Source: a virus
Taxonomy: Duplodnaviria; Heunggongvirae; Uroviricota; Caudoviricetes
IMG/VR virus record: IMGVR_UViG_2671180676_000004
Coordinates: 2,122-66,121 of that record
Strand: one strand, 5' to 3'
Length of the DNA: 64,000 nucleotides
This document shows, piece by piece, positions 3,367 to 59,454 of the stretch. The position numbers and the translations under genes were made by a program. A model generated the notes under the pieces. The model had not been told where the DNA came from, searched no databases, and was given only the letters and a program-made list of their open reading frames with translations. How positions within the stretch are numbered: position 1 is the stretch's first letter; each line of letters begins with the position of its first letter.

Positions 3367-3424
3367 TCTGACAGCTATCTGCAAATTGCACAGATATCTG
3401 CCAGATCTGGTTCAGATTAATACA

Positions 3425-6541: not shown

Positions 6542-6663
6542 AGCGCATCCTTTGTGCCGCCTGGCAAGAGCCGGAAGGGCGTTAAGAGTGACTTCCGGCG
6601 CGTAAAAAAATAGTCTATATACTGACCGGGTGTTAAGGTGGCCCGATCGGTAGCAATGGTCAA

Positions 6664-7902
6664 TTAATTACTGACAGTTTCAGGTTTCGGGAAACTGAAC
6701 AGTAAATCACGGTAGTATTCGTATTGTTTCTGGCGCAACTCGATTTCACGCGGGAGACCTTCGGTGATGGAGTTGGTCAGGGTGTCGAATTTATCGAGCA
6801 GAGCAGATATTCGCTCTTGTTTCTGTTTATCAGGCAATGGCACTGGTAATGTTTTTATAATATCTGCATTCAAGTTACTGACCGACCCGCTATTGATTTT
6901 ACTTTCCCAATAATTTTTCACCTTTTTTGATGAAAGATAGTGATACAGATAATCAGCATTTAATTTTTCACCAAAATTGCTGATTGATGCCCATCCATCA
7001 TGGATAGCTCCGGTTATCCTTAAAATATATGGTCTGCCAAAGCTCATAGAGTTAGAAATGACGAAATCACCGGGGTTCAAGATTCGCGATTTTTGGGCAC
7101 CCTCTGCAGTTATTTTTTGTAAGGTTTTGTCAATGTATTTAGAGCCGGGGATAGTATCTCCGATTTTAATCCATGGGATACCATTTCCTTGTTCAGTAAG
7201 ATAATTAACAATTGGCCTGGGGGATGCCCCACGTTGTATTTTGGCTACTTCTCCCAATGCCTTCCACTCAACCTCACCCTCTTTAAAACTCAGCAACTGG
7301 TCGCGATAGTAGTTGTACTGTTTTTTACGCATGTTAAGCTCAGCGGTAAGCTCAGCGGTAAGTGCAGTAAACTTATCCAGAATCCGAACAATTTCAGACT
7401 GGATGGCAAGGGATTTTCCCGGGGCGCTGGGACAAGGGATGGGTATTTGATAGTTTAAAATTGCATCTTTACTGCCTCGAGGCATCTTTGCCCCTTTAGC
7501 GTGCTGCATACTGTAAGAAAAAAATGAATCCGACGATAATGCATAGTAGAGATATTCTGGACTAATAATTTTTTTACAGTCTGCTAAAATGCGTATAGCA
7601 AGGACATCACCACTGCACCCGCCATTATTCTCCGCCATCCAAACTTTCTTTAAATATGGGCGAATATTACCTAAAAGAATATCACCTGGCTCATAGGCAG
7701 TTAAACGTGCCGTATTAGGCTGATAGGTGGCGTCAATGCGACCGCCTTTATCAGCAAGGAGATTATCAACGCCAACGAATGAAGTGGCATCAAGTTTATC
7801 AGCATCAACTTTGGTTGTTGAATACCCGGCGATATCGCCCACTGCTTTCCACTCAACCTCAACCCCATCCAGCAATTTTTCCAGATAACTCAACTCGCTC
7901 AT
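6664..7902 (-). CDS. hsdS: type I restriction-modification specificity subunit (type IC)
   Basis: 412 aa; two target-recognition domains separated by conserved central region containing TAELTAEL and followed by conserved C-terminal region ending [13 protein letters not shown]; start overlaps hsdM stop. Confidence 0.85.
7337..7360. repeat. 12-bp tandem duplication (2 copies) encoding TAEL-TAEL in hsdS central region
   Basis: AGCTCAGCGGTA repeated at 7337-7348 and 7349-7360. Confidence 0.85.
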
Positions 7903-9461
7903 TTCTGCACCTCGCAGCCTTCAATTTCAGCCACAATCGCATCAATATCTTTACGCAACTGGTCGATTTTGCTGACCGTGGTTTTCAGCTCTGCATTCAA
8001 CTCAGCGATATCGATAATTTCGCGAGTATCTTTCACTTCAACATAGCTGCTCACCGACAGGTTATAGTCATTAGCAACAACAGTCTCAAACGCAACAGAT
8101 TTCGCCAGATGAGCAACATCTTCCTTGCTGGCAAATACCTGCATAATTTTTTCTATATGGGCATCGGTCAGAATGTTGTTGTTAGTCTCTTTTTTGAACA
8201 GTTCGCTGGCATCAATAAACTGAACTTTGGTATCCGTTTTATGTTTAGACAGCACCAGAATATTGACGGCAATGGTGGTGCCAAAGAACAGGTTCGGTGC
8301 CAGTGAAATCACGGTTTCGACATAGTTATTGTCAACCAGATACTGACGGATTTTCTGCTCCGCGCCGCCACGGTAAAAAATGCCCGGGAAGCAGACAATC
8401 GCAGCACGACCTTTGGCAGAAAGATAGTTCAGCGCATGTAATACAAACGCAAAGTCAGCTTTGGATTTGGGGGCCAGAACGCCAGCCGGGGCAAAACGTT
8501 CATCGTTAATCAGCGTCGGGTCATCGCTGCCAATCCATTTCACCGAATACGGCGGGTTAGAAACGATGGCATCAAACGGTTTTTCATCTCTGAAGTGCGG
8601 CTCAGTCAGCGTATTGCCCAGCTTGATATCAAACTTGTCGTAGTTGATGTTGTGCAAAAACATGTTCATACGCGCCAGGTTATAGGTCGTATGGTTGATC
8701 TCCTGACCGAAAAAGCCTTCTTCGATGATGTGGTCATCGAACTGCTTTTTCGCCTGCAACAACAGCGAACCGGAACCTGCTGCCGGGTCGTAGATTTTGT
8801 TAACGTGGGTCTGGCCGTGCATTGCCAATTGTGCAATCAGCTTAGAGACGTGCTGCGGTGTAAAGAACTCGCCGCCTGACTTACCAGCATTCGCGGCATA
8901 GTTAGAAATCAGGAACTCATAGGCATCGCCGAACAGGTCAATCTGATGTTCGTTGAAGTCACCAAGTTTTAACCCTTCAACCCCTTTCAGAACCGCAGCC
9001 AGGCGGGCATTTTTATCTTTAACGGTGTTACCCAGGCGGTTACTGGTGGTATCGAAATCAGCAAACAAACCTTTGATGTCAGCTTCTGAAGGATAACCGT
9101 AAGCAGAACTTTCGATAGCAACGAAGATGCTGTTTAAATCTGCGTTCAGTCTGTCATTGGTATTTGCTTTCGCCGCTACGTTGCAGAAAAGCTGACTGGG
9201 GTAGATGAAGTAGCCTTTAGTTTTGATGGCATCGTCTTTAATGTCATCAGTAATTACGCTGTCATCCAGTTTCGCATAACAGATACTGTCATCACCGGCT
9301 TCAATATAGCTGGAAAAATTTTCGCTGATAAAACGGTAGAAAAGTGCGCCCAGAACGTATTGCTTAAAATCCCATCCATCGACCGAACCCCTGACATCGT
9401 TAGCAATTTGCCAGATTTGACGATGAAGCTCTGCACGTTGTTGAATACTTGTCATTTTCAT
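7899..9461 (-). CDS. hsdM: type I restriction-modification DNA methyltransferase subunit
   Basis: 520 aa; N6-adenine methyltransferase motifs (NPPY at the catalytic site, AdoMet-binding DPAAGSGS); first gene of operon. Confidence 0.9.
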
Positions 9462-10587
9462 CCACTTATTTCAGGCTTATGTAATTGGCGGTGATTCTAC
9501 AGCAACTTGGATGCTTTAGCAGTTCGGACATTAGGCAACGAATGACCTAATTAGAGCTTTTTGGAAAAGCGGTATTGTCGGTGCGATGATAGCTATGTTT
9601 GGGTGCGCGATGGTGCAATACAATGACGGTGAAAAGGTAAGCATCCAGTCTGATGGCTGGTATGGGCTGGATAGCCTGCAAAAAACCGCAGATAAAGCCT
9701 GTCAGCAATATGGAAAGTCTAAAGCCGTATATCAGCATAGCGCGAACGCTAATCCACATCTCGCGCCCGGCACGGGCGTTCAGAACACTATTTGGAAATG
9801 CGAACCATAACGCAGGTTGGCTTTTTACATCTTGGGCCGAATACTGATTCCGCGCTAAGTTGTTTGTGCGGAAGTGACACTGTGGAGCTTAGAAATAGTA
9901 AATACTGGTGGGCAACAAATTGAGCCTTCACACGCTCACCAGCACACACAAAAAATGGTTAAACAGCAAGGGAATTAATATCTCATCGCGACATTAAATA
10001 AGCCAGCGCACGCCTCTGTTTATCACTGACTTGAAAAACCATATCAGAACCACGATGAAGACAATCGCCAGCACTTGGCTAAGAACAGGCGCATTTAAAA
10101 ATGCACTTAGAAACTGAAAAAATACAATCATCAGGGTAATCCTCGTCTAATGTAAAGCTGTGTGCTCTCACGTTGACGTAGAAACCCAACCTCTATATAG
10201 TTGGATTCGGTGAAAGAAAGTCGTTAACGTGAACTTACGGCACATGTTTTCGGTATAAAAATCAGGGAACTGTGAATTCCTTGATGTAGTTGGGGCCTGT
10301 AATGCAGGCCCTATCTATTAATGTCATGATTACATCTCAAATTTTCTCCTTATCATTATTATTTAATAAAATTCAATTAATATAATATCCATTTCCTGTG
10401 TGTGCAAACACAGTATGAGGAAAATGGCCCCGTTGCAAGTGCATAACTTTGTGGATAACTCTGAAGGCGAATTTACATTTCGGCGCACCGCAAGCCAGAT
10501 AAGCTGTGCGCAAAAAGCAATGGGGTGAGAAAAAAACTTTGAAGATATTGCGGCGACTAAATAATAGCCGTTATTCAATTATTCTGG

Positions 10588-10851
10588 ATGGGATTTAATA
10601 TGAACGAATGGAACATAGCAGCCAAAAGCCAGGAAGAAAGGAATAAAGTTAACGTTGACCTGGCTGCCAGGGGGGTTGCCTACAAAGAGCGATTGAACAT
10701 ACCCGTCATAGCGGAACAGGTAGCCCGTGAGCAACCTGAGAACCTGCGCACCTATTTCATGGAACGGCTACGGCACTACCGGCAGTTAAGCCTCCTGCTG
10801 CCAAAAGGAAACGATCCGGTATATCAGAAAGAAGATATAGCCAAAAAATAA
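10588..10851 (+). CDS. hypothetical small protein
   Basis: 87-aa ORF (alternative ATG at 10600) directly upstream of UmuD'-like gene; no family recognised. Confidence 0.3.
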
Positions 10852-10949
10852 CGCGCCACCAGGCGAGCGCAAAGCATCGCGCTATTGCACACTTCAAGCA
10901 TCTTTAATGTATACTGTATGGATAAACAGTACTCTGAGGTGAAAACGCT

Positions 10950-11339
10950 ATGGGCTTCCCTTCTCCTGCGGCGGATTATGCTGAGAGTCGTATTTCTCTT
11001 GATCAGCAGATAATTAGACATCCTTCAGCGACCTACTTCTTGAGGGCAGCTGATAGTCATCATCGTGAGGGAATATTACAGGGTGCATTGCTGGTGGTCG
11101 ATTCCTCACTTACCCCGGTTGATGGTTCTCTGCTTGTATGCGCTCTGGATGGGGAATATCGCGTAAAAAGATACCGGAAGTATCCACGTCAGCATCTGGA
11201 GGATTTGAGAACCGGTAAGAAGGAAGCATTGCCAAAGGATGACGATGGATGCACGGGCAGCAATGCCGTGTTTGGTGTGATCACTCACATTATCAACGAC
11301 GCAAGAAGTGGCGAGTTTGATGATTGTCCCGTGATGTAG
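10950..11339 (+). CDS. UmuD'-like S24-family peptidase, naturally lacking the N-terminal cleavable segment
   Basis: 129 aa beginning M-GFPSPAADY, the sequence that follows the Cys24-Gly25 self-cleavage site in E. coli UmuD; candidate Ser (ADSH) and Lys (RVKRY) dyad positions retained; no umuC partner adjacent. Confidence 0.6.
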   Translation: MGFPSPAADYAESRISLDQQIIRHPSATYFLRAADSHHREGILQGALLVVDSSLTPVDGSLLVCALDGEYRVKRYRKYPRQHLEDLRTGKKEALPKDDDGCTGSNAVFGVITHIINDARSGEFDDCPVM

Positions 11340-11375
11340 GAGAACTGATTAGGCGGTGCAATGCACCGCCTTTTA

Positions 11376-12476
11376 TCACACTGCGCGGAATGCGATCTCG
11401 CCAGGTATTACTTCGCCTTGCCAATACATTTGGGCAGCAACGCGATCTGCGAGGTCACGATAAATAGCCGTAAATTCGCTATCTGGACGACTAATAACGG
11501 TTGGTGTTCCGTTATCCAGATCTTCACGAAGAGAGATATGAAGTGGCATTTGGCCTAACAACTGCGTGTTGTATTTCTCGGCCAGTTTCTGTGCGCCACC
11601 GGTGCCAAAAATTGGCTCGTGATGACCGCAGTTACTGCAAATATGCACACTCATGTTTTCGACGATACCCAGTACCGGCACTTCGACTTTTTCGAACATC
11701 ACAATGCCTTTCTTCGCATCGATCAGCGCGATGTCTTGCGGCGTAGTTACCACAACCGCACCAGTTACAGGAATGTTCTGCGCCAGCGTCAACTGAATAT
11801 CACCAGTGCCCGGCGGCATATCGAGAACGAGATAGTCCAGATCAGGCCATAGAGTTTCCTGCAACATCTGCATCAGCGCCTTGCTGGCCATCGGTCCACG
11901 CCACACCATTGCATTGTCGTCGGTGACCAGATAACCAATAGAGTTGGTTGCCAGGCCATGAGACATGATAGGTGCCATGTGAGTACCGTCCGGTGAGGTT
12001 GGACGTTGGTTTTCCGCGCCCAGCATGGTTGGAATTGATGGACCATAGATATCGGCATCCAAAATACCAACTTTCGCACCTTCAGCAGCCAACGCCAGTG
12101 CCAGGTTTACCGCCGTGGAGGATTTACCCACGCCGCCCTTGCCTGAGCTGACGGCGATAATGTTCTTAACGCCATTAATGCCTGGTTGGTTTTTGACGCG
12201 CTTAAGCGTGGCAATGTTGTACGACAGCTTCCAGTCAATAGCCTTTGCGCCAGTGATACGGAGCAGATCACCACTACATTGCTCTTTCAGGTCTTCAAAA
12301 GGCTTATTCCACACGAAAGGCATGATTAGTTCGACATGCAGTGTGTCATCCATCAACGCAACATGGTGTAACGCTTTAAGCGTAGTCAGGTTGTGTTTCA
12401 GGGTTGGGTGCTGAAAATTAGCCAGCGTACCGGCTACCATTGCTCTCAGGGCATCCGGCGATTTGGACTCGCTCAT
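11376..12476 (-). CDS. apbC: Fe-S cluster carrier ATPase ApbC/Mrp
   Basis: 366 aa; P-loop GKGGVGKS; CxxC pair; divergent from metG as in Escherichia chromosomes. Confidence 0.9.
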   Translation of the reverse strand: MSESKSPDALRAMVAGTLANFQHPTLKHNLTTLKALHHVALMDDTLHVELIMPFVWNKPFEDLKEQCSGDLLRITGAKAIDWKLSYNIATLKRVKNQPGINGVKNIIAVSSGKGGVGKSSTAVNLALALAAEGAKVGILDADIYGPSIPTMLGAENQRPTSPDGTHMAPIMSHGLATNSIGYLVTDDNAMVWRGPMASKALMQMLQETLWPDLDYLVLDMPPGTGDIQLTLAQNIPVTGAVVVTTPQDIALIDAKKGIVMFEKVEVPVLGIVENMSVHICSNCGHHEPIFGTGGAQKLAEKYNTQLLGQMPLHISLREDLDNGTPTVISRPDSEFTAIYRDLADRVAAQMYWQGEVIPGEIAFRAV

Positions 12477-12633
12477 CCCGTCTCCTTTATTTTAATTTGC
12501 GCAATTGTCGCCTTGTAGTGTACTCCAGCTACGACATTTAATCATTTATGAGAAATGCTGTTATCACATGGCAGACATAAGGCCATTTTGTTACTATCAA
12601 GCCCCTTTTCACTACAAAGAAGTAATGCCTACT

Positions 12634-14667
12634 ATGACCCAAGTCGCGAAGAAAATTCTGGTGACGTGCGCGCTGCCGTACGCTAACGGCTCAATCCACC
12701 TCGGCCATATGCTGGAGCACATCCAGGCTGATGTCTGGGTTCGTTACCAGCGAATGCGCGGCCACGAGGTTAATTTCATCTGTGCCGACGATGCCCACGG
12801 TACGCCGATCATGCTGAAAGCACAGCAGCTTGGTATCACACCGGAGCAGATGATTGGCGAAATGAGTCAGGAACACCAGACTGATTTCGCAGGCTTTAAC
12901 ATCAGCTATGACAACTATCACTCGACGCACAGCGAAGAGAACCGTCAGTTGTCTGAGCTTATCTATACTCGCCTGAAAGAGAACGGTTTTATTAAAAACC
13001 GCACTATCTCTCAGTTGTACGACCCGGAAAAAGGCATGTTCCTGCCGGATCGTTTTGTAAAAGGCACCTGCCCGAAATGTAAAGCGCCAGATCAATACGG
13101 CGATAACTGTGAAGTCTGCGGCGCAACATATAGCCCGACTGAATTGATCGAGCCGAAATCGGTGGTTTCTGGCGCTACCCCGGTAATGCGTGATTCCGAA
13201 CACTTCTTCTTTGATCTACCTTCTTTCAGCGAAATGTTGCAGGCATGGACCCGCAGCGGCGCGTTGCAGGAGCAGGTGGCGAACAAAATGCAGGAATGGT
13301 TTGAATCCGGCCTGCAACAGTGGGATATATCCCGCGATGCGCCTTACTTCGGTTTTGAAATTCCGAACGCGCCGGGCAAATATTTCTACGTCTGGCTGGA
13401 CGCGCCGATTGGCTACATGGGTTCCTTCAAGAATCTGTGCGACAAGCGCGGCGATACCACCAGCTTCGATGAATACTGGAAGAAAGACTCCACCGCCGAG
13501 CTGTACCACTTCATCGGTAAAGATATTGTTTACTTCCACAGCCTGTTCTGGCCTGCCATGCTGGAAGGCAGCAACTTCCGCAAGCCGACCAACCTGTTTG
13601 TTCATGGCTATGTGACGGTGAACGGCGCGAAGATGTCCAAGTCTCGCGGCACCTTTATTAAAGCCAGCACCTGGCTGAATCATTTTGACGCTGACAGCCT
13701 GCGTTACTACTACACTGCGAAACTCTCTTCGCGTATTGATGATATCGATCTCAACCTGGAGGATTTCGTTCAGCGTGTGAATGCCGATATCGTTAACAAA
13801 GTGGTTAACCTGGCGTCCCGTAACGCTGGCTTTATCAATAAGCGTTTTGACGGTGTGCTGGCAGGCGAACTGGCTGACCCGCAACTGTATAAAACCTTCA
13901 CTGATGCTGCTGAAGTGATTGGTGAAGCATGGGAAAGCCGCGAATTTGGTAAAGCTATCCGTGAAATCATGGCATTGGCTGACCTGGCTAACCGCTATGT
14001 CGATGAACAGGCTCCGTGGGTGGTGGCGAAGCAGGAAGGACGCGATGCCGATCTGCAGGCGATTTGCTCTATGGGCATTAACCTGTTCCGCGTGCTGATG
14101 ACGTACCTGAAGCCGGTACTGCCGAAACTGACTGAACGTGCAGAAGCATTCCTGAATACAGAACTGACCTGGGATGGTATCCAGCAACCGCTGCTGGGCC
14201 ATAAAGTGAATCCGTTCAAGGCACTGTATAACCGCATCGATATGAAGCAGGTTGAAGCACTGGTGGAAGCATCCAAAGAAGAAGTGAAAGCCACAGCCGC
14301 ACCGGTAACTGGCCCACTGGCTGACGACCCGATTCAGGAAACTATCACCTTTGACGACTTCGCCAAAGTTGACCTGCGCGTGGCGCTGATTGAAAACGCA
14401 GAGTTTGTAGAAGGTTCTGACAAACTGCTTCGCCTGACGCTGGATCTCGGTGGTGAAAAGCGTAATGTCTTCTCAGGCATCCGTTCCGCTTATCCAGATC
14501 CACAGGCACTGATTGGTCGTCACACCATTATGGTGGCTAACCTGGCACCACGTAAAATGCGCTTCGGTATCTCTGAAGGCATGGTGATGGCTGCTGGCCC
14601 CGGCGGGAAAGATATCTTCCTGTTAAGCCCGGATGCTGGTGCTAAACCTGGCCACCAGGTTAAGTAA
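12634..14667 (+). CDS. metG: methionine--tRNA ligase
   Basis: 677 aa from ATG 12634 ([26 protein letters not shown]); HIGH-type and KMSKS motifs; zinc knuckle CPKC...CEVC; C-terminal tRNA-binding domain; intrinsic terminator at 14690-14713. Confidence 0.95.
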
Positions 14668-14689
14668 TTAAACAACCTCTCTTCGCAAT

Positions 14690-14713
14690 GCCCGGCAACA
14701 CGCCGGGCATTTT
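14690..14713 (+). terminator. intrinsic terminator of metG
   Basis: GCCCGGC-aacac-GCCGGGC followed by ATTTT. Confidence 0.7.
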
Positions 14714-14750: not shown

Positions 14751-14765
14751 AAAACAATTTGTTTT
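14751..14765. promoter_or_regulatory. palindromic operator-like site
   Basis: AAAACAA-T-TTGTTTT, first of a tandem pair after metG terminator. Confidence 0.5.
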
Positions 14766-14801: not shown

Positions 14802-14816
14802 AAAACAACTTGTTTT
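14802..14816. promoter_or_regulatory. palindromic operator-like site
   Basis: AAAACAA-C-TTGTTTT, 13 bp upstream of ATG 14829. Confidence 0.5.
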
Positions 14817-16189: not shown

Positions 16190-16990
16190 AGTTGTTTATA
16201 CAATCAAGAAAACAACTGAATAACAGATCAACGAAACATCAACGCTTTCACCCGATTTGGTCTAAAAAATTGACGTTTTCACACATCACTGCTTATACCC
16301 GTAATTCTACGCAGCAGACAGCGCCACAGCGTCCAATTTTCACCACAGACGACCCAACACACTACCAACAAAAACACACGCTCAAAATCGTTCCCGTTGC
16401 GTTACATAACCATATAAACAACTTATTTCAGGCATAACAAAACAACTAAATAACACATATGCCATTCCCAAAACAACCAACCTCTTTATGGCAGGCTACC
16501 GAAAAGACCCACCTCTTCTTCCCAGGCTACCGGACAACCAACCTAACTTTCACAGGCAATCCGAAAACATTCATACGCGCGATACCCACGACACGCCATT
16601 ACCCAAACAGCGAAGAAACATCAGAATCACTGAAACCCCAACGAAGCCTGTAACCGCAAGGTTTCTCTCAATCCCAAAAGACACGAAACATAACAATCAC
16701 GGGAAACGCCATTACCCAATACACGAATAACTACAAAAGCCCTTCACGCACTCCAGACAAACAACTCAAACACAATAACGAAAGGAATCGCCCACCTGCC
16801 ATTACTCCATACACGGAGAAGAACAATCACCAAAACGACGAGAACACCCCATAGAAGAACCACCGCAAAACGAACGAAACCATTTACACCGACAGAGAGA
16901 ACAACACGCCCAATTCACCAACAGAAATAGTCGCCGTATAGAACGTTCTGGAAGGAGTGAGCATTAACGCCTATAGAGAGGTTGAGACAG
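16190..16990. repeat. strand-asymmetric A/C-rich non-coding region with degenerate repeats
   Basis: Plus strand almost devoid of G/T runs; recurring units (GCCATTACCCAA..ACA at about 16596, 16709, 16798; CAGGCTACCG at about 16490, 16525); only low-complexity ORFs. Confidence 0.5.
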
Positions 16991-17608: not shown

Positions 17609-17623
17609 AAAACAATTTGTTTA
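17609..17623. promoter_or_regulatory. palindromic operator-like site
   Basis: AAAACAA-T-TTGTTTA upstream of ATG 17635. Confidence 0.5.
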
Positions 17624-18092: not shown

Positions 18093-18107
18093 AAAACAAG
18101 TTGTTTA
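18093..18107. promoter_or_regulatory. palindromic operator-like site
   Basis: AAAACAA-G-TTGTTTA upstream of ATG 18118. Confidence 0.5.
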
Positions 18108-22045: not shown

Positions 22046-22328
22046 GATAATTTTTCCTTATGTAAATTTAAAATTTATTGTCGTTAGCGTCTTCGCTTTC
22101 GACGAGTTCAATTATCGATACGCGAAAAAAGATTGCAAGTGTTTTTTTAAAATTTTTTGCAGGGATGAAAGTCCTAGAAATAAAAGCGAGATCGTCGAAG
22201 GTGTTCCCTAAATAAATAATCGATTCCGGCTTTCGACCTTATATATATTTAGATTATTTGATTTATAGATATAAAGAAGTGATGTGAAAAATAATAACCG
22301 GACTTAGCCGGTTATTAACCTTATAGAT

Positions 22329-28759: not shown

Positions 28760-28858
28760 GGTCTGGGAGCTTATTTAAAGACCTGCTTCTGTATATATAA
28801 ATAATAAGTAACTTATTAAATATATACGGAAGCAGGCTTAATAAGACATGCCCAGACC
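28760..28858. repeat. about 100-bp imperfect palindrome (long hairpin element, copy 1)
   Basis: outer arms GGTCTGGG / CCCAGACC, inner arms CCTGCTTCTGTATATAT / ATATATACGGAAGCAGG, centre ATAAGTAACTTAT. Confidence 0.6.
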
Positions 28859-28874: not shown

Positions 28875-28889
28875 AAAACAAGTTGGTTA
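28875..28889. promoter_or_regulatory. palindromic operator-like site (variant)
   Basis: AAAACAA-G-TTGGTTA, first of a tandem pair upstream of terminase genes. Confidence 0.4.
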
Positions 28890-28899
28890 GAAAATGCAG

Positions 28900-28914
28900 T
28901 AAACAAGTTGTTTT
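28900..28914. promoter_or_regulatory. palindromic operator-like site
   Basis: TAAACAA-G-TTGTTTT upstream of ATG 28954. Confidence 0.45.
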
Positions 28915-28953
28915 AGAGCGCATGGACGCGCTCTGTGTGTTTTAGAGGGATCT

Positions 28954-30868: not shown

Positions 30869-32443
30869 ATGGAATTGAACGACAAACAAATTAAGGATCT
30901 GGTGGCGCGACGCCACCCGGAATACGAAAAGAAAAAAGAACATTGGGACTTCCTCGCCAGCACTTACGCTGGCGGGCGTGGTTGGTTTACAGACAATATC
31001 TTTCGTTACTTTAAAGAGGGAGATCAGGAGTTTAAGGAGCGAGTTGAACGTGCTTATCGCTTCAACCACACTCGTGAGGTGGTAAACCTCATCAACAAAT
31101 ATCTCTTTAAAGAAGACATTCATAGAAATATCGAAGAGGCACCAGAGCAGATCCGCAATTTCTGGAAACGTGCGACTCGCCAGAATGCCTCTATTGACTC
31201 ATTTATGGCCGCTATTGATTTGCAGTCGTCTATTTACGGTCGCATATGGGTTGTTGTCGATAGCACGATGAGTGGTGATGTTGAGTCAGTAGCTGACGAG
31301 AAAAAGAAAGATGCTCGCGCCTACGCCTACTGGATTTCACCTCAGCAAATGCTGGATGTGGCATGGGACGACGACGGGAATATGTTGTGGGCGTTAATTG
31401 TGGAAGTCGCTCGTGATGACGCAGATCCTTTTACTTCTACAGGTCAGGAATACCAACGTTATCGTCTGTGGACACAAAACGAGTGGTATCTGTTCCGTGA
31501 GGAAGTGAAGAAGGGCGCTGGTGGAGCAGGTCGCCGTCAGGCAAAAGTTATTTTAGAGGATAGCGGTGAGCATAATCTCGGCGTAGTTCCTGTGTTTCCT
31601 GTTGATTGTATTGGAGAAAGTGAATCACCGTATTTCAGCCCATCGTTGATCGATGATATCGCTTATCTTGATCGTGCGGTTGCAAACTATCTGTCAAACC
31701 TTGATGCCATTATTCAGGATCAGACATTTAGCCAGTTGGCTATACCGGTACAGTCGCTTTTACCTGGTGATGAAAACCACACTAAAGTGCTTGAAATGGG
31801 CACAAAGCGAGTCTTCACCTACGATTCTGAAGGTGGAAACCAGCCGTTTTATCTGTCACCAGACCCGAAACAAGCTCAGATGATCATCACTACGATTAAG
31901 ACGGTGATTAACGAAATCTACCATTCAGTTGGTGTAGCTGGTGAGCGAACGAAGCAGGACAACGCACAGGGAATCGATAATTCATCTGGTGCCGCAAAAA
32001 TGTATGACTTCCAGCGTGTAAATAGCTTGCTTGTCACAAAAGCAGAGCGTCTGGAAAGGGCTGAACGCCAAATCATGCTACTGGTTGCGAAATGGATGGG
32101 GGTAGATCTGGACGAAGACCACTCTTTAATTGCGTATCCAGAAAGTTTCGATATTCGTGGCCTTACTGATGAATTTTCTGTTGCCGAGAAACTGTCATTA
32201 CTTCAGGCACCGGACTCTGTACGTCGTCACCAGATGGAAATGCTTATTGAGAAGATTTTCCCGAACATTACTGAGGCGATGAAAAAGGAATTTGATAAAG
32301 ATCTCTTGAATTTTCCTCCAAAAAATGATCTAAATACCCTTGAAAATAAGTCAGTACTTACTTATGATCGTGGTGCAGCCCAAGAAAGCGGGCAAGATCA
32401 ACCCCGAGGGAATGGGGACTCATCTACTCAAGAGAACGAGTGA
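30869..32443 (+). CDS. portal protein
   Basis: 524 aa following terminase; size and position typical of siphovirus portal. Confidence 0.7.
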   Translation: MELNDKQIKDLVARRHPEYEKKKEHWDFLASTYAGGRGWFTDNIFRYFKEGDQEFKERVERAYRFNHTREVVNLINKYLFKEDIHRNIEEAPEQIRNFWKRATRQNASIDSFMAAIDLQSSIYGRIWVVVDSTMSGDVESVADEKKKDARAYAYWISPQQMLDVAWDDDGNMLWALIVEVARDDADPFTSTGQEYQRYRLWTQNEWYLFREEVKKGAGGAGRRQAKVILEDSGEHNLGVVPVFPVDCIGESESPYFSPSLIDDIAYLDRAVANYLSNLDAIIQDQTFSQLAIPVQSLLPGDENHTKVLEMGTKRVFTYDSEGGNQPFYLSPDPKQAQMIITTIKTVINEIYHSVGVAGERTKQDNAQGIDNSSGAAKMYDFQRVNSLLVTKAERLERAERQIMLLVAKWMGVDLDEDHSLIAYPESFDIRGLTDEFSVAEKLSLLQAPDSVRRHQMEMLIEKIFPNITEAMKKEFDKDLLNFPPKNDLNTLENKSVLTYDRGAAQESGQDQPRGNGDSSTQENE

Positions 32444-33377: not shown

Positions 33378-34253
33378 ATGCCATTACTGCGTGAAGAAGC
33401 TGAAAAGCTGTCTAACAACGAACTTGAACAGGGCGTGATTGAAACCATCATCGATCGCGATGACCTGTTTGCCATCCTGCCTTTTATGAAAATTACTTCA
33501 AAGGCATATCTGTACAACCGTGAAAAAACGCTGAGTGAAGCTACCTTCATCGACGTTAACGACACCATCCCGGAAGGTGCAGCAACCTTCGAAGAATGCG
33601 TTGCGAAACTGCGTATTCTGGCTGGTGACGTAGACGTTGATAAATTCCTGGCAACCACTATGGCCGACACCAATAACCAGTTGGCTATTCAGGTTCGTCA
33701 GAAAGTTAAAGGTCTGGCTCGTGCGTTCCGTCGCAATCTGATTTTGGGTGACTCCAGCACCAACAACAAAGCGTTTGACGGCATTCCACGCCTGATGCAC
33801 GCAGATCAGAAGATCGATATCGCCGGTGCATCTATGACTTTCTCTATGTTCGACGAACTGGTCGATGCGGTGAAAGATCTTGGTGCTGACTGCATCATGA
33901 TGCGTTCAGAGCACCTTCGTGCTTACCGTGCGCTGCTGCGTACAGTAAACGTAGGTCCGTCTGAAATCATGATGGAGAACTTCGGTCGTCCGATGCTGTG
34001 TCATAACGGCGTTCCGTTCATCATCAACGACTTCATCCCGACTGATTCTGGCAAAGCAAGCATCTACTGCTTGCATCTGTCAGAAGAGAACGGCGTTACT
34101 GGTCTGTATGGCGGCGATAACGCAGGTATCGTTGTTGAAAACATTGGTACTGTACAGAACAAAGACGCAGTACGTACCCGTGTGAAGTGGTACTGCTCTC
34201 TGGCGAATAAGCACGATAAGGCTATCGCTGCACTGACCAATGTAAAAATTTAA
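33378..34253 (+). CDS. major capsid protein
   Basis: 291 aa after scaffold; strong intrinsic terminator 34285-34313 downstream, as expected for a highly expressed capsid gene. Confidence 0.65.
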   Translation: MPLLREEAEKLSNNELEQGVIETIIDRDDLFAILPFMKITSKAYLYNREKTLSEATFIDVNDTIPEGAATFEECVAKLRILAGDVDVDKFLATTMADTNNQLAIQVRQKVKGLARAFRRNLILGDSSTNNKAFDGIPRLMHADQKIDIAGASMTFSMFDELVDAVKDLGADCIMMRSEHLRAYRALLRTVNVGPSEIMMENFGRPMLCHNGVPFIINDFIPTDSGKASIYCLHLSEENGVTGLYGGDNAGIVVENIGTVQNKDAVRTRVKWYCSLANKHDKAIAALTNVKI

Positions 34254-39106: not shown

Positions 39107-39376
39107 GTGTCGCCATTAGAGCTACTGAACGTTCCTCTCACGATGTTCTGGATGCTCAGTCGCAATATAGACCGTCTGCGTGCGGAAGAGGATGTCCGCA
39201 ACTTACAAGTCGCTCGTGCGTCCCAGGCGGATGGCGAGGCTGTGAAGGCGTTCATGGAGGGTTTGCAACTCAGGATTGGAAGACCAGTCGTAACAGATAA
39301 AGTCTACGATCCAAGCCAGGATAAGGCAGACCCTGACGCCAAAGAGCAACTGATGCAAATATTTGGCAGAGGATGA
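39107..39376 (+). CDS. tail assembly chaperone extension (gpT-like; probable frameshift product with 38709-39026)
   Basis: -1 frame relative to upstream ORF; this frame is open from 38990; likely expressed as a G-T fusion rather than from its own start. Confidence 0.35.
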   Translation: MSPLELLNVPLTMFWMLSRNIDRLRAEEDVRNLQVARASQADGEAVKAFMEGLQLRIGRPVVTDKVYDPSQDKADPDAKEQLMQIFGRG

Positions 39377-42300
39377 CAAGGGAATGTCACAAAACGTAGA
39401 GTTTATCCTGTCGCTGGAAGACAAACAGTTTACAGCGTCAATCGATCGTGCGGGGAAACTGCTTACTCGATTTGGTGAGCAGGTAACAAAGCCTGCTCAA
39501 AAAATCCAAACCTTTGAACGCTCTTTGGGTTCGGTCGCCCGTATCATGGGCGTTCTGGAAAGCAAGCTCGATTCTACGGCAGATAAACTACAGGATGTAG
39601 CTGCCGGTTTTGAGCTTGCTTCAGATGCTACGCGTAAAATGCGTGGCAACATCACCAGCCTCAATTCTGGTCTTAAAGCCCTGATTGAGCGCGTCGATAC
39701 GACAACTTCTTCAGTAGATAAACTCACCGCGTCATTACGTAAAGTGCAATCAGAGCTAAATGATTTCTCTGATTGGGCGACCTATGCAAGCAAAAGCGCA
39801 AGCCGCTTTGGTACGGAGGTCAAAGAAGCCTCTGCGTCCGTGAGTGGCATGAATACGCGCCTTAATACCACGACGAAGCGACTCAGTAATTGGGGTGTCA
39901 CAACGAGTCAGGCTGCCGAGGGACTGAAAAAGGTTCGTGAGCAGATGGACGAAGTTATCGGACGTCAGCAACTGATTAGCAAGCCGGTACGCGTTCGTAC
40001 ATCTGGAAGTGGCGATGGTGGTAGCGGGCGGCGTAGCGGCGCTTCTGGCCATAGCGGTAAAAGTAACGAAGGAGGTATGTTCTCTGGCCTTCGTGGCAAC
40101 ATTTTCCTGCTTGGCGAGATCGGAGATGCAGCCAGAACGGTTACTGACATAATGTTTGGGTGGCAGAAGCCTATTGTTGAAGCTGCGGCCGAAATGGAAC
40201 GTATGCGGGTGATGCTTCGAGGGTTGAATAAGGAGAAGTCCAACCCGGGCCAGGCTGCCGCTGATGATATGAAGTACATCGTAGACATGGCGCAAAATGC
40301 GCCGTTCGCGATGCAGGCGTTAACAGATTCCTTCGTGAAGTTTCGTTCTGCTGGCTTAGATCCAACCGATGGTTCTCTGAAGGCGCTGGTGGACTCCGTT
40401 GCTCGTTTTGGTGGTGATAGTGAGCTGTTGAAACGTGCGGCTGTGGCCGTTCAGCAGATGTCCGGTAAGGGCGTTGTGTCAATGGAAGAGCTACGTCAGC
40501 AATTAGGTGAAGCCGTTCCTAACGCGATGCAGGCAATGGCAGACGCCGCAGGCATCACTATGGGGGAACTGACTAAAGCCGTTGCCAGCGGTACGGTTGA
40601 GGCAAAACAGGCGTTGTCTCTGATGTTTGTTGGTCTGCGTGCGGAGAATGAGAACGCAGCGAAAGACATGATGCAAACCTACACAGGTGCGCTGGCACAA
40701 CTTCAGACCTCATTTACGCTATTTGCAGATCGTGTTGGTCAGGCCGGATATCTGGATTCTCTATCAAAGGGGATGAAAGAACTGGCTTCAATCATGAATA
40801 GCGCGGAAGGGATTTCGTTTGCCAATTCTTTAGGTTCGGGGTTAACGACGGCAATCGATGGGTTGCGTCAGCTTGCTCAATGGTTAGCAAAGAACCAAGA
40901 GTTGGTAATTAATCTCGGTAAGGTTGTGGCCGCGATGGTTGCGTTCAAACTGATGCGAGCAGGGGTCATGGGGGTAGTTGGCGCTGGCAGCCAGATGGTT
41001 AGCACCTTTGCCACGATGGCGACCGCTATACAGACTCCATTTAACCTCGGCGCTACAGCAGTAACTCGATTCAATCGTGCGGCACGTATGGGGCTGGCTC
41101 CGATCCCCTCTCTTATTTTCGCCATCCGTGGGGCGATTACGGGGCTTAAAGGCGCTTTTGCAGGATTAACGGCGTTCATTGCGGCAAACCCTATAGGGGC
41201 AGCATTTACAGTCGCCACTGTAGCTGTTGCTGGCCTAATCACGTACATGACCATGCTCCGCAGCGAAACTTCAAAGGTCGTTGACGAGATTAGGAAAATA
41301 CCAGAGGCGATGACGGCGGCCAAACGTGCACAAATGGCCGACCGCGCAGAAAAGCTCGAAAAGCAGATTCTTGCTGATCAACGAGCATTAAAAACTGGTG
41401 AGGGTGTTAATTACGTATCTAACTCTGCCGGTGTTATTACTCACAAAGAGTCGAAGGCTGACATCGAAGCACGCCTGAAAAAAAATCAGGAGGAGTATCA
41501 AAAGATAACCGGCACGATAGCTCTTGGTGACGGCGCTGTAGCAAAGCGTTTGGCTAAAGAGGCTGCCGAATCTCAGATTGAGAAAATTCGAGCGGAAAAC
41601 CAGATTTTCGCGGCAACATTCGTGAAAGCCCGGCAAGAGGCTCTGGATAAGATCCAGAAAATCAATGATGACGGTTCACTTTCAGATGACGAAAAGAACA
41701 AGCTATTGGCACCGTTACGTGAAACGGTAAACAAAAGCTATCTGGAGCCTGCGCAAAAACTGGTTGATTCACTTTCTTCTCGTAAGAATGCGACCGAGAA
41801 GCAAATTGCGACTCTTAATGATCAGCTTGAAAAAGCCAAAAAGGATGGAAATACCGAGCAGATCCAGAAACTGCAAGGCAGTATTCGTGGTTATCAGGAG
41901 CATTTGGAAGCCGTTGCTCAGGAGCTGACTCAGGCAGAGTTCGAGAGAGATAACGCGGCCAAAACTGGTAAGGGCGTAATGTCAAACCAGGGGACTGTTC
42001 TTGGGTTAGGTACAACTGATAAAGCTGCTCAGAAGGCGCTGGCGCAATATATGCGAAACCAGATGGATTCTGCGACTTATCAACGTACTTTGCCTGACGG
42101 CACTCCGATGATGGACTTCGAAGGTAAGCCGATTATTGGGCCTAAACAACTCAAGACGCAGCTTAATTTGCAGAAAGCATCCAGTGCCAGCTCTCTGGAG
42201 AAAATGAGCGATGAAGAGCGTGCCGCAGCCATTGCCGCACTTACTAAAGCTCGTGAACAGGATGCCGCAGCCGCCGAGAAAGCAGCCCAACGATCAGCTA

Positions 42301-43955
42301 ATGCCTCGCAGCGTGCGGCCAAGAAAGAACAGGCAGCGCAACAGAAACTGGCGGCCGGATATCAGAAGGCTCTGGATAAAGCCGATCAGCTTATGGGGCA
42401 AATGGGTGAAAGCTCTAAGGCTACGGTATCGTTTGATCAGTCTCTTCGCGATACAACAAAATCGCTAACTGATTTGGCTAATGCGATTCCTAACGAGTTC
42501 ATCACTCAAGAGATGATCGACAAGGCGAAAAAACGTCTTGAAGACCTCAAAAATGCGACACCTGAATATCGCGAGATGTTTAATCGCCGCAATGTTGAGC
42601 AGATGATCTCCACTTGGGCACCGGAGGCGGATTCCATTATTAGTGCTGGCTATACGCCATCTCGCGAAGAGAAAGTTGCTGATTTCGAAGACACCTACAA
42701 CCGCAATCTCAAAGCGTTGATAGAACTTCGTGATAAGGCGTCTGATCCTAAAGTTGTGGCGCTTTATACAAAGAAAATCAATCAACTGATTGCTGCTGGC
42801 AATACCGCGCTTATTAAAGAGACGGGGACTGCGACGCAGAAGTTGGCACTGGAATACGAAAACCTGGCAGAGCAGGTCGAAAGCACCTGGACTGATTTGT
42901 TTAGTGGCTTAACTGATGTCCTGACTGATTTCGTTATTAACGGGAAGATGAGCTTCTCCAGCCTATCTCAGTCCATTTTGAAAGATATCACCAATATGGT
43001 CGTGAAGTCGCAGATCACGCTGCCTCTAATGAACATGTTGGGGATGGGAACCACCGCAGCTGGTAGTTCACAGAGTGGCAATTTGCTGACCGGGGTTGCT
43101 TCTGCCGTTGCCAATCAAGGTGTACGAATGGGCAACACTGTTAATGGCGACAAGTCGGTAGGAGAAGCCACGAAGGAGACGTCCAGTTCGGTAACTGGAT
43201 TGGGGCAAACAACACAGCAGACCACCAGCGCAATTGGCACAGCAACAAATGCGATTGGTAGCTGGGTATCGGGGCTATTTGATAGCACCGAAGCCAAAGA
43301 TGCTGAGACAAAAGCAGTGAAGGACTCCATCTTCTCGATGCAGAATCTCAGCTCTGTTACCGGCGCTCTGTCAGCCGCGTTTGCAATGCTTGGAGCTAAT
43401 GCTTCCGGCTCTGGTAATAAGTGGTTGAATTTCGGCGCGACAGTTGCATCTGGTTTGGTTTCAGTATGGGCTGGTGGTGGATTCGATGGATTGATGTCCG
43501 GTTCTTCTGGCTCAACTTCCGGGTTCAACAATCTGACCAGTTCTGCTGCCGATGGCACGAATGGTATTCCTGCAATTCCGAAGTTTGCAAATGGTGGCAT
43601 ATTCGGAAAAGACGGCGTGATCCCGCTCCGGGCATACCAGAAAGGCGGTATCGCCAACTCACCTCAATTGGCGTTGTTTGGGGAAGGCGATATGAATGAG
43701 GCGTATGTTCCATTGCCTGATGGTCGAACAATCCCTGTAACGCTCAGTACCGATGGTATGAGTGGAGGAGGAAATGTTCTTTCTCCGGTATCAATTGAGA
43801 TCAACGTCCATAGTGACGGTAGCACAACTGAATCCGGCGATACAGAAAGCATATGGAACAATGCCGCTCAACGGATGAAAGCAATCGCGCTTGAGACTAT
43901 CGCTCAAGAGAAACGCCCTGGCGGATCACTCAACCCAAACACTCAACGTAACTAA
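39363..43955 (+). CDS. tape measure protein
   Basis: 1530 aa, helical N-terminal half, Gly/Ser-rich C-terminal region; position after G/T chaperones. Confidence 0.85.
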   Translation: MAEDDKGMSQNVEFILSLEDKQFTASIDRAGKLLTRFGEQVTKPAQKIQTFERSLGSVARIMGVLESKLDSTADKLQDVAAGFELASDATRKMRGNITSLNSGLKALIERVDTTTSSVDKLTASLRKVQSELNDFSDWATYASKSASRFGTEVKEASASVSGMNTRLNTTTKRLSNWGVTTSQAAEGLKKVREQMDEVIGRQQLISKPVRVRTSGSGDGGSGRRSGASGHSGKSNEGGMFSGLRGNIFLLGEIGDAARTVTDIMFGWQKPIVEAAAEMERMRVMLRGLNKEKSNPGQAAADDMKYIVDMAQNAPFAMQALTDSFVKFRSAGLDPTDGSLKALVDSVARFGGDSELLKRAAVAVQQMSGKGVVSMEELRQQLGEAVPNAMQAMADAAGITMGELTKAVASGTVEAKQALSLMFVGLRAENENAAKDMMQTYTGALAQLQTSFTLFADRVGQAGYLDSLSKGMKELASIMNSAEGISFANSLGSGLTTAIDGLRQLAQWLAKNQELVINLGKVVAAMVAFKLMRAGVMGVVGAGSQMVSTFATMATAIQTPFNLGATAVTRFNRAARMGLAPIPSLIFAIRGAITGLKGAFAGLTAFIAANPIGAAFTVATVAVAGLITYMTMLRSETSKVVDEIRKIPEAMTAAKRAQMADRAEKLEKQILADQRALKTGEGVNYVSNSAGVITHKESKADIEARLKKNQEEYQKITGTIALGDGAVAKRLAKEAAESQIEKIRAENQIFAATFVKARQEALDKIQKINDDGSLSDDEKNKLLAPLRETVNKSYLEPAQKLVDSLSSRKNATEKQIATLNDQLEKAKKDGNTEQIQKLQGSIRGYQEHLEAVAQELTQAEFERDNAAKTGKGVMSNQGTVLGLGTTDKAAQKALAQYMRNQMDSATYQRTLPDGTPMMDFEGKPIIGPKQLKTQLNLQKASSASSLEKMSDEERAAAIAALTKAREQDAAAAEKAAQRSANASQRAAKKEQAAQQKLAAGYQKALDKADQLMGQMGESSKATVSFDQSLRDTTKSLTDLANAIPNEFITQEMIDKAKKRLEDLKNATPEYREMFNRRNVEQMISTWAPEADSIISAGYTPSREEKVADFEDTYNRNLKALIELRDKASDPKVVALYTKKINQLIAAGNTALIKETGTATQKLALEYENLAEQVESTWTDLFSGLTDVLTDFVINGKMSFSSLSQSILKDITNMVVKSQITLPLMNMLGMGTTAAGSSQSGNLLTGVASAVANQGVRMGNTVNGDKSVGEATKETSSSVTGLGQTTQQTTSAIGTATNAIGSWVSGLFDSTEAKDAETKAVKDSIFSMQNLSSVTGALSAAFAMLGANASGSGNKWLNFGATVASGLVSVWAGGGFDGLMSGSSGSTSGFNNLTSSAADGTNGIPAIPKFANGGIFGKDGVIPLRAYQKGGIANSPQLALFGEGDMNEAYVPLPDGRTIPVTLSTDGMSGGGNVLSPVSIEINVHSDGSTTESGDTESIWNNAAQRMKAIALETIAQEKRPGGSLNPNTQRN

Positions 43956-46496: not shown

Positions 46497-49400
46497 TTGA
46501 ACATGGAACAGTTCAAGAAGAAAAAGCTACCGCTGTTTATTGCCGGTGCGGGTGGTAAAAAAAGCAGCAAAAGCTCCAGCCGTACACCGGTTGAAGCCGA
46601 CGATACCGTAAATTCTCGTGCAATGGCCGCTATCCTCGATCTTCTTGGGGAAGGGGTAATTGGCGGCTTAGTAAATGGCGCAAGATCTATTTTTATCGAC
46701 GATCTGCCGATTGTAAATGAAGACGGTTCCTCCAACTTCAGCGGAATCACATGGGATTTTCGCGACGGTTCACAAGACCAGACTCCAATGTCTGGCTTTG
46801 ATTTCGTTGAAACGCCTAAATCCGTCAATATCCAGTTAAAAAAAACACATTATGTAACGGTTTCAATCGATAACGATGAAGCTGATCGGGTTCGTGTCAT
46901 CATGAAGTTTCCTTCTTTGCGAAGCATAGATAAAAAAACTGGTGACACGAACGGTACGACTGTTGAGTACAAGTTCCAGATAGCAAATGGCGACTCAACA
47001 TTTGTAGATGTGGTCGCGGAAGGTGAAAAAAGCGTTGGCATTAAGCTAACAGCAAAGAAGACCGGCGTTTATTACCGTAGCTACGAGCTGAAGCTGCCTA
47101 AGCCTGGACGCGCATACAAGGTTCGTGTAGTCCGTATTACCGATGATAACAGTAGCCAGTATCTCTATAACGATACATGGGTGGATTCAATCGGGGAAAT
47201 TGTCGATACACCGATGAACTATCCAAACTCTGTTTTGGTTGGATTGAAGGTAAACTCTGAGCAATTCGGCAGCACCATGCCATCTCGCTCTTATCTGGTG
47301 CGTGGCCTAAAAATTCGAGTACCTTCAAACTATAACGAGTCCAGTAACACTTACGCTGGGGTATGGGATGGTACTTTTAAGCTGTTGTCTTCTTCGAACC
47401 CCGCGTGGATTCTCTTTGATTTGCTGACCAATGCTCGATATGGCCTTGGTCAGTATGTGTCGGAATCTATGATTGACCTTGGCCAGTTGTACCAGATTGG
47501 TCGATATTGTGACGAAGAGGTCGATGATGGCTTTGGTGGCAAAGAGAAACGCTTTGCAATCAATACGCAGATCACCAGTCGACAGGACGCATACCGGCTA
47601 ATTCAGGATATTGCTGGAGCATTCCGCGGCATGGTGTTTTGGGCTGGTGGGATGGTTAACATCATGCAGGATAGCCCATCAGATCCGGTAATGATGTTTA
47701 CCAACTCCAACGTCAAAGATGGATTGTTTACCTATAAAGGTTCTGCGCGTAAAGATCGCCCATCCGTTGCGCTCGTAACCTACAACAACAAGGAGGACGG
47801 TTATAAGCAAAACATCGAGTACGTCGAAGATCAGGACGCAATGCGCCGTTATGGTGAGCGTAAAACAGAAGTCGTAGCATTTGGCTGTACAAGCCGAGGG
47901 CAGGCTCACCGAGTTGGTTTGTGGCTTTTATATACCGCCAGAATGGAGTCGGATGTAATTACATTTACTGCCGGCTTAGACGCGTCATTTCTGATGCCTG
48001 GTGAAACCGTTCTGATTCAGAACAAATATCGCGCAGGCAAACGTAACTCAGGTCGAATTGTGGCGTTTACCAAAAACAGCGTCACACTCGATGCGCCTGT
48101 GTCGTTAGCCAAAGGCGGCTGCTTTATTCGAATACTGAATAAGGAAGGCAAAATCGTTGAACGCGATGTTCTTGAAACTGGCGAAAATATAACAAAAGTT
48201 ACGTTTTCAAAAGCCCTGTCTTCGGCTGAAACGCCTGTTTTGAACGGCGTCTGGACTATTACAGAACCAGACCTCGAACCTATGCGCGTTCGCATCGTTA
48301 ACATCGCGCAGGGGGAAACGCCGGGTAGCTTTGACATCACCGCTGTTGAGAACAATCCGTCTAAATATGAGGCGATCGACAATGGTGCAACGCTTATCCC
48401 TCAAAATACGACGGTATTGGACCCGACTTACTCCAAGCCGTCTAATTTGCAAATCACCGAAGGGACTTATCTCTCAAGCCCTGGCAACCTGTCAGTAAAA
48501 CTGACTGCAACATGGGAAGGGAAATCTCCAGAGTATTGGATCAGTTGGCGACGTTCTGATGAAAACAATGTATCGAACTGGCAATCGGCGCGTGTAACCG
48601 AAGAGCAATACGAAATCGTTAATGTTGCGGAGAATGGACGCTACGACTTCCAGCTGTATGCGGTTTCATTCAACGGTAAAAAAACAGAGATTATCAGTAC
48701 CGTTTATCAGGTGCTGGGCACAATGACACCGCCAGATGCCCCAACGTCATTAACGGCCGTTGGAGACTATCGTAATGTGATACTGAATTGGGTTAATCCA
48801 GATTCGGTAGACCTTGATCACATTAATGTTTACGCATCCCAGACCAACAATCTGGATACGGCGAAACTGATCGCAGAGTCTGCAAGCACCACCTTTACAC
48901 ATGCTGGTCTTGGGGATAGCGAAACGTGGTATTACTGGGTTCGAGCATCGAACAAGCGAGGTATGTTAAGTCCTCCGAACTCAAACTTGGGTACAGAGGC
49001 GACAACTCGCGATGTACTGTCGTTCCTGACTGGCAAAATTACATCTTCCGAGCTTGGTCAGGCTCTGCTTGAGGACATCAACAGCAAAGTCTCTCAAGAA
49101 GCAGTTGACGAGTTAAATGAGCATATCAACCAGAGCGTCGAATCTTTGGAGGGGTCGGTAAACGACGTTAAGGAAGATATAGCTGAATTAGATAAGCAGT
49201 TCAGCGATAACCTCGCGGATTTTGAAATAAAATTCAACGAGCGTAGCGATGCTTTGGAGAACGCACAAACCGAGCTTAAAGGTGAGGTTTCGGCAACGAT
49301 CGACAAGGTCAATGAAGCGTTTGAAAAAATTGATGCTACTGATGCTGCAATTGTTGAAATCGAAAACACCGTATCTGAACACGATAAAGCTCTCGCTAAT

Positions 49401-58333: not shown

Positions 58334-58348
58334 AAAACAAGTTGTTTC
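58334..58348. promoter_or_regulatory. palindromic operator-like site
   Basis: AAAACAA-G-TTGTTTC upstream of parA ATG 58383. Confidence 0.5.
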
Positions 58349-59410: not shown

Positions 59411-59417
59411 TTTTATT

Positions 59418-59442: not shown

Positions 59443-59454
59443 ATAGGTTCCCTA

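Follow-up and report, generated by a model that had tools for sequence, protein, structure and literature searches.

A paralogous family of long hairpins, probably transcription terminators and insulators, at three module boundaries of SSU5-like phage-plasmids

Two long palindromes of related sequence are located at operon ends in a 64,000-nucleotide stretch of viral DNA (hereafter the window, meaning the whole stretch that was analyzed), and their occurrence raises the question of what such an element does at more than one place in the same replicon. An earlier note on the window had read the two palindromes as unusually long terminators that possibly double as a protein-binding or recombination site and mark cassette boundaries. 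Both palindromes were confirmed in the sequence, with the arms and centers that had been described. They are referred to here as copies A and B, and a third one as copy C. The explanation that fits best, and that we consider probable, is a family of terminators and insulators located at three module boundaries of SSU5-like phage-plasmids.

The replicon and its relatives

Sequence comparison identified the 64-kb window as an SSU5/pHCM2/pLF82 (Cyrano)-like phage-plasmid of Escherichia coli. The best overall match was plasmid pUTAK-6-1 (NZ_CP157149.1; 111,466 bp), which contains the window in reverse orientation with few indels. The annotation of pUTAK-6-1 lists as cargo the chromosomal-type genes metG and apbC as well as hsdM, hsdS, and hsdR, which make up a complete type I restriction-modification system; these genes are located at positions 91793–95084 and 97005–103035 of the record, which correspond to about 3400–14700 of the window. 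The 3-kb stretch around copy A was matched by 791 plasmids, most of them non-mobilizable, 95–115 kb in size, and from the genera Escherichia, Klebsiella, Enterobacter, Yersinia, and Salmonella; genes for terminase, portal, and capsid proteins are among the features annotated there. Phage-plasmids of the SSU5 type are frequent in E. coli, Klebsiella, Salmonella, Enterobacter, and Yersinia pestis (pMT1).

Structure and surroundings of copies A and B

Copy A is a nested palindrome of 99 nt on the plus strand (28760–28858), composed of outer arms, partly paired spacers, and a core hairpin of 55 nt (28782–28836, plus strand) that scored 86.3 bits with a covariance model. The inner arms CCTGCTTCTGTATATAT (28782–28798) and ATATATACGGAAGCAGG (28820–28836) enclose an AT-only apex with the center TAAGTAACTTA, and the outer arms are GGTCTGGG (28760–28767) and CCCAGACC (28851–28858). 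When the outer arms are included, the inverted repeat has a length of 39 nt and is 72% complementary. The core hairpin of copy B also comprises 55 nt (61438–61492, plus strand; 74.4 bits) and is formed by the arms ACCTGCTTCTGTATA (61437–61451) and TATACGGAAGCAGGT (61478–61492), whose AT-only apex, TAAGTTACTTA, is unlike that of copy A. The lower stem is common to both copies, and a U·G wobble is found at stem position 9 in A and B alike. The calculation of folding energies that had been proposed in the earlier note yielded predicted values of −50.6 kcal/mol for the 99 nt of copy A (z = −11.2) and −24.2 kcal/mol for copy B (z = −6.3), and no shuffled sequence equaled either of them.

As described earlier, copy A follows a ParB-like operon: it begins 3 nt past the stop codon of an 88-aa ORF, which is the last gene of a ParB–ParB–ABC ATPase operon, and the terS and terL genes are located 95 nt downstream. 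In the window, this copy has no T-tract and is followed by CTTAATAAG, with T at three of nine positions. A small GC hairpin (GAGCGC-ATGGAC-GCGCTC; 28914–28935), which together with the adjoining TGTGTGTTTT occupies positions 28914–28945 on the plus strand, is located 80 nt beyond copy A and directly before the ribosome-binding site of terS. It has the shape of a canonical terminator and is kept in every lineage, and the stem variant GAGCAC/GTGCTC is compensatory. Judged from its sequence and location, it may be a second terminator, or may serve the late operon as a leader terminator or attenuator.

The interval between copy A and terS also contains two copies of a 13-bp palindrome, AAACAAnTTGTTT (28876–28913, plus strand). 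In the window this palindrome has 20 strand matches at about 11 sites (503–515, 1232–1244, 14752–14764, 14803–14815, 16416–16428, 17610–17622, 18094–18106, 28876–28888, 28901–28913, 58335–58347, and 62363–62375), compared to 0.23 matches expected. Several of the sites are located 20–50 nt upstream of start codons, namely those of terS (twice), parA, and a dnaB-like helicase gene. From this distribution, AAACAAnTTGTTT looks like a putative operator of a global regulator such as a prophage repressor, which at terS would be the operator of the late operon.

Copy B was likewise found where it had been reported, behind a low-GC cargo pair and in front of a T-run. It begins 24 nt past the stop codon of a 398-aa ORF, the second gene of the pair, and is directly followed by the T-tract TCTTTTTCT (61493–61501, plus strand; 7/9 T), which corresponds to the U-tract that intrinsic terminators have. 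Copy B has CCCAGAC as its outer right arm (61511–61517, plus strand). The outer left arm is degenerate in the window (CTGG at 61422–61425) because different cargo abuts there. CCCAGAC was also considered as a general motif, but with six occurrences in the window and 4.4 expected it is not enriched, and it is meaningful only beside the hairpins. Conserved blocks were observed 3′ of hairpin B (window positions 61523–61598), which are CCCTTCCGTTTCCACTTCCAAAA and the 20-nt motif ATAAGTAAGTAACTACCTAT. The latter recurs about five times on pUTAK-6-1 on either strand, and blocks of these types are located at 2387–2402, 75366–75386, 96096–96116, and 99603–99622 of that plasmid in the orientation of the window; they are possible candidates for a promoter or operator.

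Copy number and distribution

Copy C is located on the same plasmid outside the window (NZ_CP157149.1, 108378–108432), between a gene for a Dam-like methyltransferase and a small ORF. Its fold has a predicted energy of −27.8 kcal/mol, and with the T-tract CTGTTTTGT its anatomy is that of copy B. In the window, the 16-mer arm occurred five times when up to three mismatches were allowed, compared to 0.38 occurrences expected, and none of 100 shuffled sequences reached five. When the covariance model was applied to the window, to the plasmid as a whole, to SSU5, and to 20 distant relatives, it retrieved copies A, B, and C alone, and SSU5 itself contains all three. Lone arms were never found in the window, the plasmid, SSU5, and the relatives searched. 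Two weak matches from the arm search with mismatches and the covariance model, at 22227–22282 of the window and 43649–43731 of SSU5, were rejected as copies. A scan for gapless palindromes returned nothing and a window-based RNAfold scan far too many candidates, and both were uninformative.

The recurrence in related genomes on which the earlier reading had been made to depend was readily observed. An exact-pattern scan of IMG/VR yielded more than 117 matches, each of which is located, according to its flanks, at one of the three orthologous positions A, B, and C. In an unbiased sample of loci collected via TerS, the hairpin was present at position A in all 73. All copies are intergenic between co-directional genes, begin 3–25 nt after a stop codon, and have one orientation relative to transcription. 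Of the complete E. coli genomes searched (n = 5,426), 258 contained the element, at one to three places each; these add up to 403 places, every one of which is plasmid-borne, and no chromosomal place was found.

About 5% of the complete E. coli genomes thus carry the hairpin element, yet it is unannotated: no annotated feature was found beneath it among the matches listed for these genomes. Rfam 15 contains no family that reached its gathering score, and hits were limited to generic models of miRNA precursors with long hairpins, whose scores were far below the threshold. A literature search found no paper describing the element. Most likely, the hairpins represent an undescribed, recurrent, paralogous three-copy family of insulating terminators, a kind of element that is itself known.

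Stem conservation and covariation

All copies have the lower stem CCTGCTTCYGTATA/TATACRGAAGCAGG, whose sequence is nearly invariant across genera, including the CCT/AGG part that the search pattern had left free. The apex consists of A and T only and differs between copies and lineages, and slippage of TA places the arms 24–31 nt apart. This variable spacing, together with the compensatory changes, argues for a folded hairpin and against a bipartite recognition site in duplex DNA. Stem pair 9 in the relatives is CG (n = 12), UG (n = 11), UA (n = 6), or CA (n = 2), and the first pair of the extension is AU or GC (n = 7 each). An outer inverted repeat, (G)GTCTGGGAG ... CTCCCAGAC(C), is located 12–24 nt on either side of the core in all three classes and in most lineages; its stem shows a compensatory change from GC to AU in one lineage, and the outer arms compensate each other in A and C.

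On the sense strand, G·U variants were more frequent than A·C variants (21 vs. 5 cells, at 7 vs. 4 positions), which from the alignment would mildly favor sense-strand RNA as the folding species. The folding energies of the sense and antisense strands differed little and inconsistently and gave no strand signal. RNA is the probable folding species. Uncompensated arm changes were present in 30 of the 73 A copies of the unbiased TerS sample, including those of large clades; judged from these sequences, the hairpin appears to be constrained strongly, but not absolutely.

In three genomes, copy B matches copy A at each of the 55 nt, although its apex is a different one in other genomes, and in a Klebsiella-type lineage a distinctive apex is common to A and C. 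These identities indicate that the copies homogenize by gene conversion, which explains much of their similarity without a sequence-specific factor. Gene conversion and selection for pairing can account for part of the invariance of the lower stem.

The same invariance, with CCT/AGG included, would also be expected of a site that functions at the DNA level, as an extruded cruciform or as a duplex bound by a plasmid-encoded protein. Candidates are a dispersed centromere like that of N15, a recognition site for TerS or a winged-helix protein, and an unwinding element for T4-like lytic origins. The AT-only center would favor extrusion, and the gene neighborhoods are suggestive, as B follows the parA/parG-like operon and A precedes terS beside a gene for a small DNA-binding-like protein. 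However, the spacing of the arms varies by up to 7 nt, which argues against duplex half-sites of the parS type, and the arms never occur singly. The uncompensated changes tolerated in large clades, the excess of G·U over A·C on the sense strand, and the constant orientation relative to transcription also count against a DNA site. The center TAAGTNACTTA was considered as a stand-alone operator and rejected, as it occurs only inside A and B and is missing from C.

Sequence records that break at the palindrome bear on the same question. The linear GenBank records of SSU5 (NC_018843.1, positions 1 and 103299) and Cyrano (OV696614.1, position 1) begin or end inside the loop of hairpin A, and a Photobacterium WGS contig ends (position 1) in the AT center of a similar palindrome, ..ATATATTGGAAGCAAGG. 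At least two database records or contigs thus break at the palindrome. The opening of the two phage-plasmid records inside this loop could be taken to favor a DNA-level site, but assemblers that break at palindromes explain it equally well, and assembly breakage is a simpler reading than physical DNA ends. The record of PhiR41_1 is circular, starts at a gene, and is uninformative on termini. A packaging site in particular would fit poorly with three copies per genome and with the TerL of the window phage-plasmid, which is of the T4-like Terminase_6N/6C type. Terminases of this type usually package by a headful mechanism without fixed cos ends. Taken together, a function at the DNA level appears distinctly unlikely.

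Transcription termination

Each of the three hairpins has the features of the stem-loop of an intrinsic terminator: it is stable, has a G + C-containing base, and lies on the sense strand downstream of a gene. The mean number of T in the 9 nt 3′ of the hairpin was 3.1 for class A, 5.95 for class B (19 distinct contexts), and 5.0 for class C. Because copy A lacks a T-tract in the window, it alone cannot serve as a canonical intrinsic terminator. Its outer stem is followed by a TTTT tract in the SSU5 lineage. Copy A probably acts jointly with the small terminator 80 nt downstream.

Relatives whose TerL is 58–65% identical have short ordinary terminators or unrelated AT-centered long palindromes at the position of copy A, so that the site before terS is a terminator position across the wider family. 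Very long, unrelated palindromes with AT-rich centers were observed at this position upstream of terS in the relatives from Faunimonas (locus positions 3212–3321; −68 kcal/mol) and Methylocystis (about 3200–3295; −49 kcal/mol), whose TerL proteins are 58–59% identical. A further palindrome upstream of terS (about 38712) is present on a distant relative, the Acinetobacter baumannii plasmid p37662RM2 (NZ_CP116802.1). It has a similar build, but only its center recurs, and it was rejected as a different motif. This center, TTAGTAAGCGCTTACTA, occurs in about 25 intergenic copies on p37662RM2, often followed by TAAT (for example at 33862–33880, 39177–39194, 41186–41208, 48831–48848, and 107754–107773). 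As the plasmid encodes a sigma-70 family protein (record positions 90228–90893), TTAGTAAGCGCTTACTA may be a phage-specific promoter or operator.

Published RNA-seq data are available for Cyrano, a plasmid nearly identical to the window, as gene-level counts (PMC9928086, S1 Table). Hairpin B of Cyrano (31159–31212) is located between CYRAN_30 and CYRAN_31. The upstream genes CYRAN_28–30, which encode ParA, the ParG-like protein, and cargo, had 50, 89, and 55 normalized counts, and CYRAN_31, the first gene past the hairpin, had 6.2, which is background (PMC9928086). At the gene level, each of the ten samples showed a drop across hairpin B, which was 2.9–7.9 log2 units and thus between 8-fold and over 200-fold (PMC9928086, S1 Table). 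The genes beside A and C were near background on both sides, and since those upstream were nearly silent, the RNA data are uninformative there; CYRAN_123 exceeded terS by only 1–1.9 log2 units in some samples. The term “unusually long terminators” used in the earlier note therefore fits copy B, with its strong hairpin, T-tract, and RNA drop, but not copy A alone, with three T in nine positions.

According to the mechanism proposed here, A, B, and C would be paralogous, very stable hairpins in sense-strand RNA that act as factor-independent terminators or insulators at three fixed module boundaries. These boundaries are located in front of terS and the structural genes (A), in front of the replication module (B), and behind the gene for the Dam-like methylase (C). 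Copy B would end the transcripts of the parA/parG-like operon, which is expressed in lysogeny, and of any cargo behind it. A stop at this point would leave the downstream lytic replication genes silent and would create an insulated expression slot for accessory (defense) genes. Selection on all three copies, we infer, acts mainly on termination. The three hairpins would provide a transcription-unit map of the 100-kb SSU5-like elements and explain how genes for plasmid maintenance and defense are expressed in lysogeny without leakage into the lytic modules, and copy B is a candidate for a strong portable terminator.

A plain terminator, however, needs neither an outer right arm beyond the T-tract nor a nearly invariant lower stem, and this counts against termination alone. 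In B and C, the inner hairpin is followed first by the T-tract and then by the conserved outer right arm, CC(C)AGAC. Such an arrangement would suit a retroregulator like lambda sib, in which RNA that stops at the T-tract contains the inner hairpin only and is stable, and read-through RNA folds into a helix of 35–40 bp that is cut by RNase III. Cleavage would separate or destabilize the upstream message when read-through takes place, for example in lytic growth or upon antitermination, and would add to termination rather than replace it. The conservation of the outer arms and their compensatory changes in A and C are consistent with this possibility, as is the motif TCTGG, which is kept 17–30 nt upstream of copy B in about 9 of 16 contexts whose cargo is otherwise unrelated. 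The number of flank-to-flank pairs was above the shuffled control for A (27.4 vs. 14.9) and C (20.2 vs. 14.6), but barely so for B (15.1 vs. 12.5), whose copy in the window also has no good outer left arm. The predicted helices contain 20–40 pairs, a length that fits a substrate of RNase III (about 20 bp or more of near-continuous double-stranded RNA). No antiterminator was identified, and on balance this additional role seems rather unlikely. An extension of it, in which the nested palindrome is a two-state RNA switch and the three sites coordinate plasmid-mode and phage-mode transcription of the 100-kb genome, we regard as unlikely. Under such a switch, the stop at the inner hairpin would yield stable par and defense mRNAs in lysogeny, and in lytic growth the extended helix would be processed by RNase III or recognized by a plasmid-encoded factor.

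The cargo slot closed by copy B

The genes upstream of copy B, all on the plus strand, are parA (58383–59051; 222 aa), a gene for a 119-aa ParG-like protein (59051–59410), and the cargo pair, which consists of a DUF2971/PDC-S31-like gene (59416–60174; E = 4.2e-38 to PDC-S31) and the anti-phage defense gene PD-T7-5 (60217–61413; E = 4.5e-139). The 119-aa protein has a basic disordered N-terminus and, as judged by eye, a ribbon-helix-helix-like core, as in ParG of type Ib partition systems. The annotation of its Cyrano homolog as a RelE/ParE toxin looks wrong from the sequence. The G + C content of the cargo pair is 0.38–0.42, compared to 0.47–0.51 in the flanks.

In relatives, hairpin B is separated from the ParG-like gene by 36 nt when the slot is empty and by up to 2045 nt otherwise, and at least eight different gene contents were found, including PD-T7-5 alone, membrane-protein pairs, a SEL1-like protein, and reverse-oriented genes. 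The Cyrano homologs of parA and the ParG-like gene (CYRAN_28 and CYRAN_29) are expressed in lysogeny, and the cargo gene is co-expressed with parA. Owing to this variability and co-expression, hairpin B is interpreted as the fixed right edge of an expressed and insulated slot for accessory genes. Copies A and C are each flanked left and right by conserved genes, and variable DNA abuts B only, on its left side. The earlier suggestion that the palindromes mark cassette boundaries thus stands for B and fails for A and C. The arrangement of parA, the parG-like gene, cargo, and hairpin B is a place where defense genes such as PD-T7-5 are exchanged.

The diversity of this slot and the exchange of sequence between the copies by gene conversion could be taken as signs that the hairpin is itself a site at which gene cassettes are captured or exchanged by recombination, comparable to attC sites or the PeSL elements of T4. 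This is very improbable. The variability begins upstream of the element and not inside it, only one of the three copies adjoins variable DNA, and the flank identities revealed no systematic mosaic breakpoint at A or C. No attC-type R′/R″ core was seen by eye in the arms, no integron integrase was identified, and the architecture of PeSL elements is absent, with no sigma-70-like promoter on the sense strand beside hairpins A or B. Moreover, three direct copies of an active target would delete essential segments of 30–45 kb.

Comparison with known systems

The terminator and insulator family proposed here recalls the intrinsic terminators that insulate operons and morons of temperate phages. It shares with them the stem-loop, the position after a stop codon between co-directional genes, the T-tract at copies B and C, and the drop in RNA at copy B, and like these insulators it would keep transcription that runs in lysogeny from reaching the repressed lytic genes. 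The hairpins differ in their dimensions, as a lower stem of 14–17 bp is continued by an AU-rich extension and an outer stem to a total of 55–99 nt, whereas 5–14 bp are usual for the stems of intrinsic terminators. They also differ by the presence of three paralogous copies of one sequence and by the missing U-tract of A.

In the sib/tI region of phage lambda, a terminator hairpin becomes an RNase III site in read-through RNA. As in lambda, a hairpin with its T-tract is enclosed by a larger inverted repeat, and only read-through RNA would include the 3′ arm of that repeat. This likeness is known here from sequence, there are three copies instead of one, and the two systems have no sequence similarity. 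REP/BIME elements and inverted pairs of the uptake sequences DUS and USS (Neisseria and Haemophilus) are comparable as inverted pairs at gene ends with copies that are alike within a genome. Such elements double as terminators or as stabilizers of mRNA 3′ ends. They are present in hundreds of chromosomal copies, whereas the hairpins described here occur three times per replicon at fixed orthologous positions and on none of the E. coli chromosomes.

The PeSL cassettes of T4 and the RNase III sites of T7 are likewise families of phage-borne intergenic stem-loops, and the hairpins resemble them also in that one member is located beside a hyperplastic region of accessory genes. A PeSL of the T4 type consists of an early sigma-70 promoter fused to a stem-loop and is repeated on both sides of variable ORFs; the slot described here has a hairpin only on its right, and A and B lack such a promoter. 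Integron attC sites are defined by R″-L″/L′-R′ cores (RYYYAAC/GTTRRRY), are recombined by the IntI integrase, and accompany each cassette as a single site. The arms CCTGCTTCYGTATA and GTCTGGG differ from these sites in having no GTTRRRY core recognizable by eye, and a single copy, hairpin B, borders variable DNA.
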